From an uncultured virus (IMG/VR IMGVR_UViG_3300021425_000028) (taxonomy: Duplodnaviria > Heunggongvirae > Uroviricota > Caudoviricetes): DNA of 64,000 nucleotides. This document shows, piece by piece, positions 2,863 to 43,463 of the stretch (positions are counted from its first letter, which is position 1; each line of letters begins with the position of its first letter). The notes beneath the pieces are model-generated. The model had not been told where the DNA came from and made no database searches. It was given only the letters and a program-made list of their open reading frames with translations. The translations under genes were made by a program, and so were the position numbers. The DNA is taken from the IMG/VR virus record IMGVR_UViG_3300021425_000028; one strand, given 5' to 3'.

Positions 2863-3912
2863 ATGAAACATTCAGTGTTATTCTCCCTGATTAGGGACAA
2901 TTCAGGCTCTATGAAAGGGCATAGTGGAAACAAGGCATTCATCCTAGAGGGATGTATGGAAATTGTTGATCCAAGACCAAACAAATCGGGAACATGCTTT
3001 ATCCGATACATACCTAGTGAAAAAAGCATCTTTGTCGATCAGCAGACTACAGATTTTGATTGGAACAAGATTCAATCCGGTGAGCATAAAGTAAATGACA
3101 TCCATTTTAATGATGGGTCAAGACTTTGTGACATGAATCAAGTTAGATTGATTGAGTATCTTAGAGCAGCTAAAAGTAATACTACAAACGCGGTTATTAA
3201 TCGCTATTATGGAAGTACTTACGAAGAGGCTAACTCAAAAGAAAAGAGCAATGACACAGCTATGAGCTGGGAGGCAGAGACTAAGCTTAGAAAGCAACTG
3301 GTAGAGATGCCGGAAGTTAAGCTTAAGGCCATTTATCGTGTAATGAGTAATGGAAACATTAACCAAATCAACGAAATGGAAGTTAGTTCAATCAGACACA
3401 ATCTGAACGTATTAGCGAACAAGGACAAGGCAATGTTTGATATTCTCTATTCAGACAAATTATTAGGCGTTAAATATGACCTATATGAGGCTTTGGATAA
3501 AGGAATCGTAAGTCAGCATCCATCTGACATGAGCATGTTGATGATGAATGATCGAATGGTTAAGACTGCTCCATCTGGGACAAATCCAATTCAGTTCTTT
3601 GCTGAGTGGTTAAACATGGATGGTCAAGACACATTAGAGTTAATTCGTAAAAGAATTGGCCGAGAGAAGTCGAGTACTCCAGATATAGCTACGCCAGAAC
3701 AAGATGCAGCTCGACTTATTGAGTTCATGAAGACTAATGAGCGTGGTGAAGAATTGTTTGTTTCGAAAAGCCCATCAGCAAGAGCATTTGTCTATGAAGA
3801 TGGAAATGAAGTTGCTTTAGGTAATTCGAATAAATTATGGATAAAAACCCTTGTCGAAGATGAAGATCTTAGAAAGGCGGCCATGGATAGATACCAAAAA
3901 TTGAAAGGATAA
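2863..3912 (+). CDS. Conserved phage protein downstream of MCP
   Basis: 349 aa; IRYIPSEKSIFVDQQ motif recalls post-MCP genes of Bacteroidetes podophages. Confidence 0.5.
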   Translation: MKHSVLFSLIRDNSGSMKGHSGNKAFILEGCMEIVDPRPNKSGTCFIRYIPSEKSIFVDQQTTDFDWNKIQSGEHKVNDIHFNDGSRLCDMNQVRLIEYLRAAKSNTTNAVINRYYGSTYEEANSKEKSNDTAMSWEAETKLRKQLVEMPEVKLKAIYRVMSNGNINQINEMEVSSIRHNLNVLANKDKAMFDILYSDKLLGVKYDLYEALDKGIVSQHPSDMSMLMMNDRMVKTAPSGTNPIQFFAEWLNMDGQDTLELIRKRIGREKSSTPDIATPEQDAARLIEFMKTNERGEELFVSKSPSARAFVYEDGNEVALGNSNKLWIKTLVEDEDLRKAAMDRYQKLKG

Positions 3913-12063: not shown

Positions 12064-12439
12064 GGGAACTATATACAACTTGGGACAAAACCTACTACTT
12101 TTTTTTTGTAGTGTGGATTTCGGTTAAAAATTCATTTCAAGAAGGTCGGAACTTCTTACGCTTTATACACGGAGCGAAATCACTCAAAATGAGATAACCT
12201 ATTCAATGAACGACTGAGGGTAAAGTTGCTTGCGTATTGCTTCCACCGCGAACGCCACTTTGTACGGACTGTTACCGACCCTCTTTACTCTTCTCTTTAG
12301 TCTCGCTTACTGAGGCTTTTAAAACCCCGTCTAGCGTGCCGTCAATAATGAGCTTGTCCTCGTACTTCTCAGCACGAGGCTTCTTTTCATCTTTCTTCTT
12401 TTCTGACATATCCCAAAGATAATAAAGTCATATGCTTAT

Positions 12440-20915: not shown

Positions 20916-21413
20916 ATGATTAAACAAAAATGTAGTATTTGCGGAAAGGTTGGACATAAAAAATCCTTTCATTATAAAAGTAAAAAATGTCCTATATGTA
21001 ATATTGTAAAGCCAATTGAGGACTTTTACAAAGGAAAAAAATACTATTACAGCAATTGTAAAAAGTGCAACAATGCAATGTCTCGTGATTATTATACCAA
21101 AACCGTTGAAGGTAGAATGCGGAAAATATTTAATGCCGCTAAATCCAGAAGTTTGAAAGACAACATTCCGTTTGATATTACAATTGAGTTTGTTTTTGAT
21201 TTGTTCAGAAAGCAAGAAGCTAAATGTTTTTATTCTGGTATTGAAATGACTTCTAAAATAGGTCGAACAGGAATAAGCATAGACAAGAAAACACCTAATA
21301 TTGGATATACAAAGGATAATACAGTTCTGACTACTTGGCTTGTCAATAATATGAAACGAGATTTGACCGAGCAACAGTTTAAAGAAATGTGTAAACTTAT
21401 TGCAAATAAATAA
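20916..21413 (+). CDS. Zn-finger HNH-like homing endonuclease
   Basis: CxxC pairs; C-F-Y-S-G..S-I-D..G-Y-T-K-D-N..N-N-M-K; inverted relative to neighbours; TAATTTTG at 20904-20911. Confidence 0.75.
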   Translation: MIKQKCSICGKVGHKKSFHYKSKKCPICNIVKPIEDFYKGKKYYYSNCKKCNNAMSRDYYTKTVEGRMRKIFNAAKSRSLKDNIPFDITIEFVFDLFRKQEAKCFYSGIEMTSKIGRTGISIDKKTPNIGYTKDNTVLTTWLVNNMKRDLTEQQFKEMCKLIANK

Positions 21414-37931: not shown

Positions 37932-37955
37932 GGGGATTCCCGAACTCGATATACA

Positions 37956-37987
37956 AGCCGCTGGATTTATTTCTAGCGGTTTTTTTA
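37956..37987 (+). terminator. Intrinsic terminator
   Basis: AGCCGCTGGA/TCTAGCGGTT stem followed by a T run. Confidence 0.8.
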
Positions 37988-38006: not shown

Positions 38007-38229
38007 CTAATCGTTGTTTAGTATATAATGAAGCGTTCCCTTACTACTAATTCCAAACTTGTTCATAGTCTTGATGTAAGGTTTGCTATGTGAATGGAAT
38101 TTCCTCACCTCATCTTTATTATACTTTCTGCAAAAGGATGTGGCATGTAAAGCCTTTTTAATTCTGATTTGTTCCGGAACATCCATCATATTCTCTTTTA
38201 CTTGCAATTTGCTCTATTTTTTCTTCCAT
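38007..38229 (-). pseudogene. Remnant of a homing-endonuclease-like gene
   Basis: ATG at 38229 (MEEKIEQIASK) is out of frame with a C-terminal ENMMD..FGISSKGTLHYILN HTH-like tail. Confidence 0.4.
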
Positions 38230-38274
38230 AGTTCAAATATAGTTTTTATTTTGAACTATTAGTAGTGCTAAGTG

Positions 38275-38346
38275 GGTGTAAGGAGGGTACTGACCCCTCT
38301 TCTTCTGATTCACAGTCAGATACATCACCTTAATGCTTCAAACACC
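38275..38346 (-). tRNA. tRNA-His(GUG), atypical
   Basis: G-1:C73, anticodon arm TCTGA-CTGTGAA-TCAGA; T-loop GTCAGTA; two U-U pairs in the acceptor stem. Confidence 0.8.
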
Positions 38347-38351
38347 ATAAG

Positions 38352-38422
38352 CTGTCGGAGATGGATTCGAACCACCGTCTTCAGATTCAAAGTCTGAAAT
38401 CCTGCCACTAGACGATCCGACA
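38352..38422 (-). tRNA. tRNA-Gln(UUG)
   Basis: TGTCGGA/TCCGACA, TCAGA-CTTTGAA-TCTGA, GGTGG-TTCGAAT-CCATC. Confidence 0.95.
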
Positions 38423-38479
38423 AAAATCTAATTCTATGCAGCGACCAAACGCCATATGAATTAGCAACAGCCTATATCG

Positions 38480-38552
38480 TCTAGGTGGCACGACTCGAAC
38501 GTGCGGCCTGATGCTCCCAAAGCACCCGATCTACCAACTGATCTACACCTAG
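38480..38552 (-). tRNA. tRNA-Pro(UGG)
   Basis: CTAGGTG/CACCTAG, GGTGC-TTTGGGA-GCATC, GCACG-TTCGAGT-CGTGC. Confidence 0.95.
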
Positions 38553-38563
38553 ATATTAGCCAC

Positions 38564-38590
38564 AAAAAAAAGCCTCCGAATAGGAAGCTT
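38564..38590 (-). terminator. Attenuator terminator (3:4) just upstream of tRNA-Pro
   Basis: AAGCTTCC-TATTC-GGAGGCTT running into a T8 tract. Confidence 0.85.
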
Positions 38591-38618
38591 TCTCTGTAGT
38601 TATTTATCGTTGCGTTTT

Positions 38619-38681
38619 CTACATATCCTTCCTGTTACGAGCGTGTCGTTGGCGCGGTTGGATATGTTGTTGTGTTTTCAC
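38619..38681 (-). CDS. Putative attenuator leader peptide MKTQQHIQPRQRHARNRKDM
   Basis: GTG start 4 nt after the promoter element; 4 CAA, CAT, CAC, CCG and 4 Arg codons; overlaps alternative hairpins. Confidence 0.7.
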   Translation of the reverse strand: MKTQQHIQPRQRHARNRKDM

Positions 38682-38685
38682 AATA

Positions 38686-38693
38686 CGAATGTA
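38686..38693 (-). promoter_or_regulatory. Promoter -7 element (TACATTCG) of the tRNA operon
   Basis: One mismatch to TAnnTTTG; divergent from TACATTTG at 38740-38747. Confidence 0.55.
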
Positions 38694-38739
38694 ATACTTT
38701 ATCAATTGAAAAAAAACTTTTGTTTATTGATTTTAGTTT

Positions 38740-38874
38740 TACATTTGCGTATTCCAAATAGGAAAAGACTTCACTCAGGGTCAGTCGAAAAAATCTTTTT
38801 TTGCGGGAAAAACCCATCGGGAAAAACCCTCATTGATAAAAGCCATCTGACCCTGAGAATTTAGATGGCTTTTT
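38740..38874 (+). promoter_or_regulatory. Promoter plus leader with terminator/antiterminator switch
   Basis: TACATTTG; CTCAGGGTCAG complementary to CTGACCCTGAG inside terminator AAAAGCCATCTGA/TTAGATGGCTTTT. Confidence 0.6.
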
Positions 38875-39474
38875 CTTTGCCTTTAATTCAAGTAGGCAAT
38901 AAAACAAATGAATTAGAACGGAGATCAACGTGCGTGGTTAACTGCTGTTAAATTTGATAAATGGGTTTTCTGTAACTTGCTACCCGATCAAAGCCAAAAC
39001 ATTTCCCGAAAGAACTCAACTGTGCTAGAAATATGGTAAAAAGTTTGTTAGCTCTCACTTAGGGGGCAGGGGGCTAACTTGCTTTTGCTGACCTACAATA
39101 GCCACTCAGAATCTTACATGGCTAATAAATTTATGTAGCTATTCGAAAAACATTAAATTTGGCATCTACCAATACTTATACCATGTACGCAAGCACAAAA
39201 AAACTACAATGCTTATTCGCTTGGAAAGAATTTTACATTCAGAACCATTTGTTTGAAAAAGCTCAAATTTGCCAAGACCAGATTGACGAATACGATCAAT
39301 CATAATGAGTTTAACTCCAAAACAAATTGCGAATCTTTCTATTCAAGAGATAGAAGAATACGTTAGAGCGCGATCAAATGAGGAAATTAAAATCATTAGG
39401 CCAATTCGTGAACAATCATTAAAAAGGCGTGAAAAGCCTGTAAGAGGAGAAATAAACGTAAACAGAACATTCAC

Positions 39475-39720: not shown

Positions 39721-40375
39721 ATCGTAGCCTAATAGTTTTTTTATCGTACTCAATCACTAAAAACTTAAGTGATCTGATACGCATCCATAGAGAAGATACA
39801 ACATCGCTAATTGGGGAAAGAAATATTTGTTTGCCATAGAGTAAATTATTTGCCTCCTGAACAGAAATCGATCCTTTATCACTCAGTTCCATGAAAAGCT
39901 TAAACTCATGATCAGTCAACATGATTTCTTTATGAAGCTTTGTTCTAATGTATTTTTTAGTCTTATTGACAAAAACTCTTTCCAAAACATACTCAGTGTC
40001 ATGAGTGGCCGGCACTTTATCTTCAAATGAAAAGATGTTTGGCTTTTTCTCCTCTGTTATTCTGATTTTCAAGCAGTTAATAAGACGATTATAGATAATA
40101 CTCAATGTAGTAGGAGTCTTTATTTGACTATTTATAGGACATGAGTAATTGATTTCTGGAGTCAATATAATCAAAGTACGATCATGATTTTTAGAGAATA
40201 GTTCTGGGATTTGAGATGCGTCATCCACTTCAATGATCCCATATTTAGCATTACCAATTTTGAATCTATTTACTGACTCACTGGATTTTATATTGTTGAC
40301 TTTCAGCTTTTCAAGTAGAGCTACTTTCATGCTTTGATCTAAAATATCAATGTAAACAGAACTGTTTAAGGTCAT
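39659..40375 (-). CDS. Degenerate receiver plus OmpR-like wHTH regulator
   Basis: IMLTDHEFKLFMEL..LLYG..RIRS resembles an OmpR effector domain. Confidence 0.45.
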   Translation of the reverse strand: MTLNSSVYIDILDQSMKVALLEKLKVNNIKSSESVNRFKIGNAKYGIIEVDDASQIPELFSKNHDRTLIILTPEINYSCPINSQIKTPTTLSIIYNRLINCLKIRITEEKKPNIFSFEDKVPATHDTEYVLERVFVNKTKKYIRTKLHKEIMLTDHEFKLFMELSDKGSISVQEANNLLYGKQIFLSPISDVVSSLWMRIRSLKFLVIEYDKKTIRLRFRRDYQEKLPSARKFHPSFQ

Positions 40376-40405
40376 TTATACTAAATTTGCGTCAAACTAG
40401 AAATA

Positions 40406-40996
40406 ATGGCAAAGAAAACTACAAAAGACGAGACAAAAAAAGAAGAGACTCCAGAAGTTAAAAAAACTGAGGACACAATAAAAGCTGAAGCTGCTGAACA
40501 AGCCGCTAAAGAAGCAGAGCAAAAAGCGGCAGACGAGGCGAAGGCGAAAGCAGAAGCTGAGGCCAAAGCGGCCAAGGAGGCAGAGGATAAAGCGGCATCC
40601 GAGGCACTCGTTGAGGATGAATCTAAAGCTGAAGCTGAGTGGAATATCTCAAAATACCAGAGAACTTTAATTGCCACTAAGGGTGAGAAGAAAATCACAA
40701 TTCAAGCTGTTTCAGGAAAAGGAATGGGTGTTAATAGACTTTCTGAGAATGAAGTTGTTATCAAACTTAGACATGACATTCCTCATGTAAATGCCTTCAA
40801 AAGAAGAAAAGCCGGAACGGTTATCAGTAATAATCCAATTGAGCTTAGTAAAGGCATTGAAGATAAGATAGAAAAAGAATACCAGGCAGTTGTTTCTGAA
40901 AGAGAAAAAGGAACTTTAGCTTTGGTTGAAGAGTTGTTGAATAGAGTTAAGGAAGAGTGTCCATTTACAATTGAGGACATGTCAACATTGGCGTGA
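40406..40996 (+). CDS. Ala/Glu/Lys-rich hypothetical protein
   Basis: Low-complexity AEAKA tract; TAAATTTG promoter at 40382-40389. Confidence 0.55.
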   Translation: MAKKTTKDETKKEETPEVKKTEDTIKAEAAEQAAKEAEQKAADEAKAKAEAEAKAAKEAEDKAASEALVEDESKAEAEWNISKYQRTLIATKGEKKITIQAVSGKGMGVNRLSENEVVIKLRHDIPHVNAFKRRKAGTVISNNPIELSKGIEDKIEKEYQAVVSEREKGTLALVEELLNRVKEECPFTIEDMSTLA

Positions 40997-41367
40997 ATTA
41001 CAAAAGAGAAAGTATAAGAACTCATGGCGATTTGCCTGAGTTAAGCGATATGTACGAGATTACAATTATTGTAGCTCGTATGCAGGATCGCGATAAGTAC
41101 TTCCATACAAGTATAGGCAAGGTTCATACTATTAATATTGATAATGGTAAGTACTTAGTGAAGGTTGTTGATATTGTTTTCAACAACAATTGGTTAGTTG
41201 ATAAAGGAGTTTTAAGATACGAAATCTGGGTCGAGGGTGTTAATGGCGGCACTCCTTGGATGTGGAAACACACAAACAACGGGATAACCGTTACCCATTC
41301 AATGCCTGATAAAATTAAATTGGAATATGAAGAACAAAGTAATCGTTTTAACGGGAGCAGAAGCTAA
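40993..41367 (+). CDS. Hypothetical protein
   Basis: Coupled ORF upstream of groEL. Confidence 0.5.
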   Translation: MNYKRESIRTHGDLPELSDMYEITIIVARMQDRDKYFHTSIGKVHTINIDNGKYLVKVVDIVFNNNWLVDKGVLRYEIWVEGVNGGTPWMWKHTNNGITVTHSMPDKIKLEYEEQSNRFNGSRS

Positions 41368-42928
41368 GTCAAAACTAAAAGAAGGTGTCGATCTAATAGC
41401 AAACGCCACCAAAGTAACCCTTGGAGCAAAGGGTAAAAATGTGTTAATCCAAAGAACAGGCATGTACCCTCACATCTCAAAAGATGGGGTTACTGTTTCA
41501 AGGCACGTTATAAGCTCAGATCCTACTGTTCAATCTGGTGTTTTAGTAGCCCAAGAGGCTTCGGAAAATACTGCAAAATCAGTTGGCGATGGAACTACTA
41601 CAGTATTAGTGTTAACCCAAAGCCTTATTGATAGAGGATTGAAAATTATGAAAATGGGTTATAATAGTGTTGAGATTAAATCAGGAATGGAGGATGCTGT
41701 TAAAGATGTGTCAGAAATTCTTAATGATTTAGCAAAGCCTATTAAAGAGAATCTCAAAAAACTTAAACAAGTTGCTGTTGTTTCTGCAAATGGAGATGAA
41801 GAGATTGGCCGTGTGATTGCAGAGGTTGTTGTTCAGACTGGTGTGAAGGGAGCTGTTACCGTTGAGAAAAGTATTTCCGGAAAGCATGAATGGGAAGTGG
41901 TTGATGGACTTCAGATTCCAATAGGATACTTCCATGGTGGATTCGTAAACAACGGATCTAAAATGAGAGCTGAGTTGAAAGACGTTGCGATTTTAGTTTC
42001 AAATCTTCCTATTAGGACTGCCCAACAAGCAGTGACTATAATGGATGGTGCGAAGCGCGTGAATAAGGAGCTTCTAATTTTAGCTAAAGGAATAGAAGGT
42101 GAGGCTTTAAATGTTCTTCTGGCAAACAAAAATAAAGGCAACGTAAGTGTTTCTGTAGCAGTACTCCCTGAGATGGCGGAGCAATCTGATCATATGATTG
42201 AGGATATTTGTGTAACTACTGGAGCAACAGTCATGAGCCTTAGAGAAGGTACATCGATATTCCATACCGATCTATTTGGAAGGTGTGAATACGTTCAATC
42301 AACTGAAGAGTACACAATCCTAAAAGGTGGTGCTGGAAGTAAGGAGAAAATAGATAAACGAATCAAGGAATTGAGTGAGTTGGCCGATGAAACAAAAGTT
42401 GATTACAAAAAAGACTACTACCTAGCCAGATTAGCTGCGTTAATGGGTGGTGTTGGTGTTGTAAAGATTTGGGCAAACTCAGATGTTGAGATTCGTGAGT
42501 TAGCTGATCGTGTAGATGATGCTATTCATGCTACTAAGGCTGCAATGGAAGAAGGAATTGTAGCTGGAGGTGGAATCACATTAAAACATTGTAAAAGTTT
42601 GCTGTTAGGGGGTCATAAAGGTCTTGATGCAAGAGCCGGTGAAAGAGTTGGTTATAAACTAGTGATTGACTGCTTAGATGTTCCTTATCAAACTATCCTT
42701 TCAAACGCTGGAATTAGCTACAAGAAACAATGGTGGAGATTATCTACTGATGATCAACCGTATCCGATAGGAACAAATGTCAAAGAAAATAAGCTTTGTG
42801 ATATGATTTCCGAAGGAATTGTAGACCCAAAAAAGGTGACAAGAATTTGTCTTGAGAACTCAGTCAGTGTAGCAGCTGCATTTTTAACTATTGAAACAGC
42901 AATAATACAAGCAGATGAGACTAATTGA
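41327..42928 (+). CDS. groEL: Phage-encoded group I chaperonin GroEL
   Basis: KVTLGAKGKNV, KDGVTV, GDGTTT, SANGDEEIG, DRVDDA..ATKAAMEEGIVAGGG, GIVDPKKVTR. Confidence 0.95.
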   Translation: MKNKVIVLTGAEAKSKLKEGVDLIANATKVTLGAKGKNVLIQRTGMYPHISKDGVTVSRHVISSDPTVQSGVLVAQEASENTAKSVGDGTTTVLVLTQSLIDRGLKIMKMGYNSVEIKSGMEDAVKDVSEILNDLAKPIKENLKKLKQVAVVSANGDEEIGRVIAEVVVQTGVKGAVTVEKSISGKHEWEVVDGLQIPIGYFHGGFVNNGSKMRAELKDVAILVSNLPIRTAQQAVTIMDGAKRVNKELLILAKGIEGEALNVLLANKNKGNVSVSVAVLPEMAEQSDHMIEDICVTTGATVMSLREGTSIFHTDLFGRCEYVQSTEEYTILKGGAGSKEKIDKRIKELSELADETKVDYKKDYYLARLAALMGGVGVVKIWANSDVEIRELADRVDDAIHATKAAMEEGIVAGGGITLKHCKSLLLGGHKGLDARAGERVGYKLVIDCLDVPYQTILSNAGISYKKQWWRLSTDDQPYPIGTNVKENKLCDMISEGIVDPKKVTRICLENSVSVAAAFLTIETAIIQADETN

Positions 42929-43463
42929 TAGACCATTAAACGACTATATTCTTATTGAAACATCTTTTAAACAACAAGTTTCAAGTCATGGTGTTTTCTT
43001 GAGTGGGGACTCCGTTTTACAAACAAAGGAAGGTGTTGTTAAGGCTGTTTCAAAAGATCTTAAAACCAAAATAAAAGTTGGTGAAAGAATACTTTTCAAT
43101 AGTCAAAGTGTAATTCGAACTTCACTGAAGGAGGATGAGCAAATGGTAATTTGTTCGTATTTTCAAGTTATGATGAACCTGGACACAAGAGTTCCATATG
43201 GCGACTTTATACTTGTTAAGCCTCATGAGTTGAATGAAAATACTGAGGATGGTGTTTTCTTAACTGAGGACATGAGAAAAGTATCAGGGTTTTCAGAGGT
43301 GATTGCTTGTAGCCCAGATATTCCAGGTAATATGGTTATTCCTGCAAAAGGAGATATTGTCATGCATAGAAAAGAAGTGGAGCGAGAGACAGATATGCAA
43401 GATGTTGGTCAAGAATTTTTACTTAGGCATAAAAATTTGATGGCCATACTAAATAATGCTTAA
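42915..43463 (+). CDS. groES: Tandem two-domain GroES-like co-chaperonin
   Basis: RPLNDYILIE..GVVKAV..IKVGERILF and VPYGDFILVKP..GDIV..LMAIL. Confidence 0.75.
   Translation: MRLIDRPLNDYILIETSFKQQVSSHGVFLSGDSVLQTKEGVVKAVSKDLKTKIKVGERILFNSQSVIRTSLKEDEQMVICSYFQVMMNLDTRVPYGDFILVKPHELNENTEDGVFLTEDMRKVSGFSEVIACSPDIPGNMVIPAKGDIVMHRKEVERETDMQDVGQEFLLRHKNLMAILNNA

Follow-up and report, generated by a model that had tools for sequence, protein, structure and literature searches.

A candidate leader-peptide attenuator upstream of a Pro-Gln-His tRNA cluster in an uncultured phage

The classical leader-peptide attenuators are the trpL, hisL, pheL, thrL, leuL and ilv leaders of Escherichia coli and Salmonella, together with pheM before pheST. 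A comparable arrangement was analyzed here in an uncultured virus of the Caudoviricetes (IMG/VR record IMGVR_UViG_3300021425_000028), for which the whole stretch of 64,000 nt is referred to as the window. The element lies on the minus strand, directly upstream of genes for tRNA-Pro, tRNA-Gln and tRNA-His. Like the classical attenuators, it consists of a short open reading frame (ORF) with putative regulatory codons, overlapping 1:2, 2:3 and 3:4 helices, and a terminator directly 5' of the genes that would be regulated, and its stop codon is placed so that a terminating ribosome would block the antiterminator. In contrast to them, it would act on phage tRNA genes, its GTG start would lie on an apparently leaderless mRNA, and the leader mixes Gln, His and Pro codons for three tRNAs, as in the multivalent ilv and thr leaders, rather than containing a run of a single codon. 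It also has no sequence or covariance-model similarity to the classical leaders.

T-box riboswitches likewise read the charging state of tRNA through a choice between terminator and antiterminator. They bind tRNA directly, are longer than 200 nt, carry the conserved T-box sequence and control synthetase or amino-acid genes; the Rfam search detected nothing of this kind in the window leader. The Rfam search returned no leader, T-box or riboswitch family at gathering score and no T-box match at E values up to 10. The best non-tRNA match in the leader was Phe_leader (21.8 bits; cut-off 55, E = 1.2), which was aligned on the terminator only.

Closer in phylogeny, the Rfam family Bacteroid-trp (RF01692) is a predicted leader-peptide attenuator in Bacteroidota (PMC2864571), and a study on Flavobacterium psychrophilum mentions "strong clues" to leader-peptide attenuation upstream of amino-acid operons (PMC9723704). 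They have in common with the window leader the presumed host phylum, which lacks Shine-Dalgarno sequences and has sigma-A promoters of the TAnnTTTG type, and the proposed class of mechanism; in contrast, the described elements govern amino-acid biosynthesis, and the window leader has no Rfam match. A literature search, made mostly outside subscription journals, found no published leader-peptide attenuation of tRNA genes and no ORF-plus-terminator leaders of tRNA genes in jumbo phages. The window element probably works like the trp, his and ilv attenuators, belongs to no curated family, and has a target class, phage tRNA genes, that is new within the literature searched.

Leader ORF and predicted helix switch

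We consider it somewhat probable (about 0.55) that the element is a leaderless, multivalent leader-peptide transcription attenuator, which would gate the Pro-Gln-His tRNA cluster by the reading speed of CAA, CAY and CCN codons. Its parts and the genes behind it are as follows.

38686-38693, minus strand: candidate sigma-A -7 box TACATTCG, with one mismatch to TAnnTTTG, 4 nt 5' of the GTG; it would put the transcription start on the G of GTG.
38619-38681, minus strand: leader ORF of 20 codons plus TAG, encoding the peptide VKTQQHIQPRQRHARNRKDM (from sequence and translation).
38660-38667, minus strand: segment 1, ACATATCC, within codons 5-8; it pairs with 38628-38621 (-7.8 kcal/mol) and is part of the minimum-energy fold.
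38619-38633, minus strand: segment 2 (AGGAAG GATA TGTAG, from folding), overlapping GGATATGT (38628-38621) and the stop codon.
38582-38599, minus strand: segment 3, CTACA (38599-38595) plus CTTCCT (38587-38582), overlapping the 5' arm of the terminator; both parts of the 2:3 helix together give -9.6 kcal/mol.
38564-38590, minus strand: intrinsic terminator (from sequence and folding), with AAGCTTCC (38590-38583), a 5-nt loop, GGAGGCTT (38577-38570, one G-U pair) and T8 (38571-38564).
38479-38552, minus strand: tRNA-Pro (UGG), called by ARAGORN; Rfam 61.6 bits.
38351-38422, minus strand: tRNA-Gln (UUG), called by ARAGORN; Rfam 62.2 bits.
38275-38346, minus strand: tRNA-His (GUG), with an encoded G-1 at 38346; called by Rfam only, 37.5 bits (38345-38275) against a gathering cut-off of 29.

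In the proposed mechanism, host RNA polymerase would start at or beside the GTG (38681) and yield a leaderless mRNA, and the 20-codon ORF would be translated by a ribosome while the polymerase proceeds. With ample Gln-tRNA(UUG), His-tRNA or Pro-tRNA, the ribosome would reach the TAG inside segment 2, which would then be covered or, on release of the ribosome, would re-pair with segment 1; 3:4 would form, and transcription would stop about 11 nt before tRNA-Pro. A ribosome that is slow on codons 4-11 (QQHIQPRQ) would cover segment 1, so that 2:3 would pair, no terminator would form, and the polymerase would read through into the three tRNA genes. The outcome would be a negative feedback in which phage tRNA output is matched to the decoding of Gln, His and Pro codons, that is, a demand-driven supply loop. 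The analysis shows the sequence elements, the energies of the three helices and their statistical rarity, the enriched codons and a start geometry like that of the leaderless phage genes; an active promoter, a translated ORF, ribosomes stalling in it and changing read-through are inferred.

A sequence-only reading of the locus had described three competing helices in a trp/his-type layout, and 1:2, 2:3 and 3:4 were found to pair as it described, at -7.8, -9.6 and -10.7 kcal/mol, respectively. The latter value refers to the core of the terminator, which reaches -18.8 kcal/mol when extended by pairs between the A-rich stretch and the U tract. A simple terminator scan missed this terminator and a second scan found it with a stem of 6; about 11 nt separate its T tract from tRNA-Pro. 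The fold of the 148-nt leader had a z-score of -4.29, which was equaled by none of 200 shuffles.

Dependence of the fold on ribosome position was assessed by folding the nascent RNA from 38681 to the terminator loop, and the free energy gained by pairing the terminator 5' arm with upstream RNA was taken as the measure. All RNA up to the leading edge of the ribosome was masked, and the switch score was defined as the masked minus the unmasked value. The gains at the different ribosome positions were as follows.

No ribosome: -0.7 kcal/mol; 1:2 forms and the arm is free.
Ribosome A site at codon 4, 5, 8, 9 or 11: -6.5 to -7.5 kcal/mol; 2:3 is the minimum-energy fold.
Ribosome at codon 13: -2.5 kcal/mol; the effect is partial.
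Ribosome at the stop codon: -0.6 kcal/mol; the arm is free.

The partner of segment 2 was segment 1 without a ribosome and segment 3 when codons 4-11 were masked, in agreement with the layout that had been proposed. The switch score of the leader was -6.48, and none of 400 dinucleotide shuffles of the upstream 91 nt was as strong (mean +0.31, sd 1.22); a single one of the 400 sequestered the terminator arm equally well when masked. When the same geometry was applied to 18 terminator-like sites in the window, the leader was the extreme (about -6.47) and the next best site scored -0.59. Within the folding model, the ribosome-position-dependent switch is real and very unusual in comparison with both the shuffles and the other terminators of the window.

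The leader ORF (GTG AAA ACA CAA CAA CAT ATC CAA CCG CGC CAA CGA CAC GCT CGT AAC AGG AAG GAT ATG TAG) is the sole ORF of 10-40 codons in the 110 nt 5' of the terminator. It holds four Gln codons (all CAA), two His codons (CAT and CAC) and one Pro codon (CCG), exactly the composition and position given in the sequence-only reading. Gln, His and Pro codons make up 7 of 19 codons of the ORF and 6 of 8 at codons 4-11. The match of these codons to the downstream tRNAs, also claimed earlier, proved unlikely to arise by chance: when the 110 nt were shuffled 5000 times, an ORF of 10-40 codons with at least seven Gln, His or Pro codons arose 11 times, and 124 of 12778 windows of 110 nt from the phage contain one. 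Gln, His and Pro together account for 8.7% of the 11351 codons in 28 long phage ORFs, which gives a binomial P of 7e-4 for 7 of 19. Among the 1140 possible amino-acid triples, 48 reach at least seven residues of the leader peptide and only six account for 6 of the 8 residues in the zone where stalling opens the switch (codons 4-11).

As for codon choice, the phage prefers CAA over CAG for Gln (335 vs 138), and CAA is the Watson-Crick cognate of UUG; for Pro it prefers CCA (205 of 382). The Arg codons in the leader are CGC, CGA, CGT and AGG, and AGA is avoided although it makes up 226 of 430 Arg codons in the phage. A 60-aa ORF (38817-38635) overlaps the leader in another frame; it was rejected as a gene and dropped as a rival, because its frame is broken in the relative from sequencing run X2, described below, which lacks 14 nt at 38817 and has one extra nucleotide at 38789.

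Predicted transcript start and the tRNA genes

The Flavobacterium psychrophilum study places the TAnnTTTG box at -12 to -5 and reports that 5.5% of mRNAs are leaderless (PMC9723704). Of the 74 perfect TAnnTTTG boxes in the window, 7 stand exactly 4 nt before an ATG, whereas any other spacing was found at most twice; the phage therefore uses leaderless mRNAs of the fixed geometry TAnnTTTG-N4-ATG. The genes that begin in this way include the one for the portal and four further ORFs with 45 codons or more. Starts of this geometry lie at 20916 and 48688 (portal) on the plus strand and at 12409, 28610, 32911 and 38229 on the minus strand, and a 4-codon ORF at 38961 (plus strand) shows the same geometry.

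The leader start, TACATTCG-N4-GTG, has the same spacing as the perfect-box leaderless starts of the phage. The promoter and near-leaderless ORF that had been proposed thus stood in the position of the box and in the spacing shared with the phage leaderless genes, but not in the quality of the promoter, which has one mismatch and no TTG at -33. A box with at most one mismatch at N4 precedes 40 of 3418 ATG or GTG sites (about 1.2%), which is weak evidence when taken alone. The leader promoter is plausible as judged from sequence. On the minus strand, no perfect -7 box was found between 38242 and 40761, and two hairpins with T-rich tails lie upstream of the leader on the same strand. Because the approximately 11 nt between the T tract and tRNA-Pro leave no room for a promoter, the tRNAs must be transcribed through the leader terminator.

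The genes 3' of the leader up to the next promoter box (38241) are the three tRNA genes only, with no biosynthesis, transport or synthetase gene among them. The tRNA-Pro(UGG) and tRNA-Gln(UUG) genes were recovered by both ARAGORN and Rfam where the sequence-only reading had placed them; its tRNA-His(GUG) gene gained the support of Rfam, and ARAGORN did not call it. In this third gene, two U-U mismatches interrupt the acceptor stem, and the T loop (GUCAGUA) is unusual. An IMG/VR search with pieces of the window tRNAs yielded two jumbo phages, L004 (214 kb) and L005 (304 kb). A jumbo-phage tRNA-His that is called by ARAGORN is identical to that of the window in 57 of 77 aligned columns, and the two have the anticodon arm and variable region in common and similar T loops. 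For this reason, the third gene was accepted, on sequence comparison, as a tRNA-His gene of a phage lineage. The tRNA-Pro genes of the window and L004 are identical in 66 of 75 aligned columns.

Jumbo-phage leaders, relatives and competing explanations

In L004, a TAAATTTG box is followed by a 36-codon ORF (MKTTNRHMNICNPSIQWSFNVYRTLKSRVRAFSFMS), 32 nt, a 10-bp terminator, 18 nt and then an array of 15 tRNAs in the order Thr, Gln, Pro, Lys, Val, Tyr, Asn, Ile, His, Arg, Arg, Trp, Phe, Cys and Leu. The leader peptide contains all 14 amino acids of the array and no Asp, Glu or Gly, the tRNAs for which lie in a separate block. Only 4 of 5000 shuffles gave as many as 14 kinds of amino acid; with the count limited to the 611 shuffles that had an ORF of at least 30 codons, the number was likewise 4. 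With a ribosome stalled at codons 2-25, the terminator arm of L004 was sequestered by 2.5-5.9 kcal/mol, compared with 1.5 kcal/mol without masking and 0 for a ribosome at the stop codon. Five of 200 shuffles scored at least as strongly as the L004 leader, for which the switch score was -2.57. L005 carries a 28-codon ORF (MKETTNRINLITGRKPYSRFLSNGGKRN) and a long terminator hairpin 5' of its first tRNA, without a switch by the same measure. It follows that this architecture alone is no proof of attenuation.

In all three phages a short ORF leads to an intrinsic terminator and to the first tRNA within 10-35 nt, and peptide composition tracks the array. The jumbo-phage ORFs differ from that of the window in being longer (28-36 codons) and in having 5' untranslated regions, and there is no alignable similarity; homology of the window leader with the L004 leader was rejected, as the alignment was not meaningful. 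The leader design recurs without detectable homology, and the predicted switch is strong in the window, moderate in L004 and absent in L005. Among 19 tRNA blocks of L004 and L005, a loose scan found five with a hairpin and T-rich tail at most 70 nt upstream. A convincing terminator after a short ORF was present in only two of the 19, the first large block of each array; the other three look like chance hairpins or promoter boxes.

The leader peptides of L004 (11390-11500, minus strand) and L005 (674-760, plus strand) have a common N-terminus, MK(E)TTNRxN, and that of the window begins with (V)KT. Common ancestry may account for the resemblance, as may selection for an A-rich start region where initiation proceeds without a Shine-Dalgarno sequence. 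Also in L004, 5' of the second tRNA block (3015-3400, minus strand), about 280 nt of G-rich RNA that seems to be structured separate a TATCTTTG box from a tRNA-like gene with an aberrant anticodon loop (Rfam 39.6 bits), which ARAGORN did not call.

Relatives of the locus itself are scarce. Marine-sediment run X2 gave a 558-nt contig that covers 38565-39135 and is the sole relative over the leader; across these 571 nt it shows 23 substitutions and 15 gap letters. In coding DNA, the X2 relative differs at 85 of 492 positions (39959-40450) and at 17 of 142 (39252-39393), and the noncoding block 38565-39135, which includes the leader, is the best-conserved of the parts compared. For the neighboring 238-aa protein, the only homologues are two proteins that share 78% and 55% identity with it and are encoded on contigs of 2.3 and 1.3 kb. 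The JGI metagenomes contained one 1235-bp contig (L001), which ends 237 nt past the neighbor gene and short of the leader.

Several observations weigh against the attenuator. The four Arg codons of the leader have no matching tRNA gene in the window, the lone Pro codon is CCG, which UGG would read by wobble, and His13 lies outside the effective zone, stalling there barely opening the switch (-2.5 kcal/mol). The mismatch of the -7 box falls on a conserved T, and there is no TTG at the -33 distance (about 19 nt upstream). A box with exactly one mismatch occurs at N4 in 33 of 3418 ATG or GTG sites, approximately the chance rate, and the leader starts with GTG whereas all seven perfect-box leaderless starts are ATG. 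The L005 values were only -0.4 to -0.8 at most ribosome positions. Neither IMG/VR nor the GTDB genomes nor the phages in GenBank yielded a relative: IMG/VR had no match to DNA patterns, exact or gapped, that were built from the three segments, the terminator and tRNA-Gln; protein searches there with the 238-aa neighbor, large terminase (TerL) and GroEL found no relative; an alignment of the neighbor and TerL used as queries found none in GTDB; and blastn against GenBank phages matched part of tRNA-Pro only (24 records, 7% of the query). Finally, the statistics are post hoc, the locus having been chosen for looking like an attenuator. With regard to the Arg codons, the L004 array carries tRNA-Arg(ACG) and tRNA-Arg(UCU) directly 3' of tRNA-His, which would read exactly the Arg codons of the leader; they fit the idea that a tRNA-Arg was lost from the window cluster, which is a guess, but prove nothing.

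A different trigger for a real three-helix switch, with the ORF incidental, appears unlikely. Here an RNA-binding protein of phage or host, a small RNA or a tRNA would occupy the 5' 25-45 nt, in the manner of TRAP, PyrR or BglG or of a T-box. The masking test shows only that occupation of the 5' part frees segment 2, and that part holds the direct repeat CCAACCGC GCCAACGAC; the imperfect candidate promoter, the GTG start and two candidate small-RNA genes on the opposite strand just upstream would also suit a bound ligand. Such a ligand leaves unexplained, however, why the ORF begins just where transcription is predicted to start and has its stop codon inside segment 2, why Gln, His and Pro codons are enriched, and why L004 has a codon-matched ORF. 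There is no match to a T-box or other Rfam family, and the leader is only about 120 nt long. The motif CCAACSRC-N-CCAACSRC has three matches elsewhere in the window with at most three mismatches, a number equaled by 9 of 100 shuffles and hence attributable to chance. A repeated protein-binding motif was rejected on these grounds, neither this motif nor the CA-rich 14-mer recurring elsewhere in the window beyond chance.

To a similar degree, we doubt that the unit of about 120 nt from promoter to terminator is a stand-alone short RNA, either a phage small RNA or a transcript terminated close to its promoter, like the lambda 6S RNA, that needs a processive antiterminator; the tRNAs would then come from constitutive leakage through the terminator or from read-through driven by a factor. 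The shape is typical of a small RNA, with a single-stranded, CA-rich 5' end followed by a hairpin and a strong terminator, the noncoding region 38565-39135 is better conserved in the X2 relative than the coding region 39959-40450, and L005 has an ORF and terminator without a switch. Nevertheless, the 2:3 pairing and its dependence on the mask (0 of 400 shuffles; the extreme of 18 sites) would not be expected of a short RNA, the codon match would be a coincidence, and no antiterminator protein was identified among the scanned neighbors.

Least probable is a chance assembly of an ordinary terminator for upstream transcription, a spurious ORF in a C/A-rich spacer and tRNAs made from an unrecognized phage promoter: although Pro, Gln, His and Arg codons are all C-initial, so that a C/A-rich stretch supplies them in one frame, although short ORFs are common and although TTTTTTTG (38570-38563), formed by the T tract and a G, differs from a -7 box at a single position and would start transcription 5-6 nt before tRNA-Pro, the separate tests each gave small values (0 of 400, 11 of 5000, about 1.2%), TTTTTTTG lacks the conserved A and has no TTG upstream, and L004 provides an analogue.

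Genome surroundings and biological meaning

The window makes up most of a phage contig of about 69 kb (68,831 bp). Searches against PHROGs showed that it encodes a large terminase, portal, GroEL/GroES and an exonuclease. The host is likely to be of the Flavobacteriia type, as judged from the relatives of the terminase among phages of Flavobacterium, Cellulophaga, Tenacibaculum and Maribacter (89 records, only about 25% identity) and from the Bacteroidota sigma-A -7 box TAnnTTTG, which sits shortly 5' of gene starts in intergenic regions of the window. The phage is regarded as marine; the one sequencing run with the complete stretch (X1), possibly its source, is a seawater metagenome, and X1 and X2 were the two runs listed for the stretch, with no RNA run among them. 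The phage-encoded GroEL has 533 aa (PHROG E = 6.5e-114) and is accompanied by a GroES-like protein (41327-43463, plus strand); an own GroEL is uncommon for a phage of about 69 kb.

No function was assigned by Pfam or PHROGs to the genes adjoining the tRNA cluster. Directly 3' of tRNA-His, a perfect box (38241-38234, minus strand) is followed at N4 by the ATG of a leaderless 23-codon ORF (38158-38241). A 57-aa ORF (38007-38180, minus strand) lies in a different frame from the 23-codon ORF and has no Pfam match, and the unit closes at a bidirectional-looking terminator (37955-37982).

Upstream of the leader, a candidate small RNA on the plus strand (38740-38886) is preceded by the perfect box TACATTTG (38740-38747), back-to-back with the candidate promoter of the leader. 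It would extend for about 135 nt after the box, up to a terminal hairpin that carries a T-rich tail (GCCATCT...AGATGGC TTTTTCTTT); two GGGAAAAACCC hairpins in tandem are enclosed by a long-range helix of 11 bp (CTCAGGGTCAG / CTGACCCTGAG). Its fold has a z-score of -2.55, with 1 of 200 shuffles equally good. The 14 nt missing from the X2 relative at 38817 correspond to one of the two tandem repeats in this candidate. More plus-strand boxes are located at 38949 and 39154, and the fold of 38961-39095 (plus strand) is unremarkable (z = +1.29).

Why phages carry tRNAs, and how these are timed and dosed, is an open question; current views are that they match codon usage, make up for degraded host tRNAs or help the phage to escape defenses that target tRNAs. 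We see an even chance that phage tRNA genes are a new target class of leader-peptide attenuation, in which a leaderless 20-codon "test gene" would gauge the decoding of Gln, His and Pro codons and deliver tRNAs on demand, with the same design before jumbo-phage arrays such as that of L004. Such a homeostat of tRNA supply may also respond to host tRNA loss of any cause, and the design may be widespread; that it senses tRNA cleavage by anticodon nucleases is speculation. If the attenuator is confirmed, phage tRNA genes would gain their first described cis-regulatory logic, in which the phage senses decoding speed directly, and it would extend leader-peptide attenuation from amino-acid metabolism to tRNA genes. 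The leader would then represent a compact, portable sensor of the availability of specific tRNAs.

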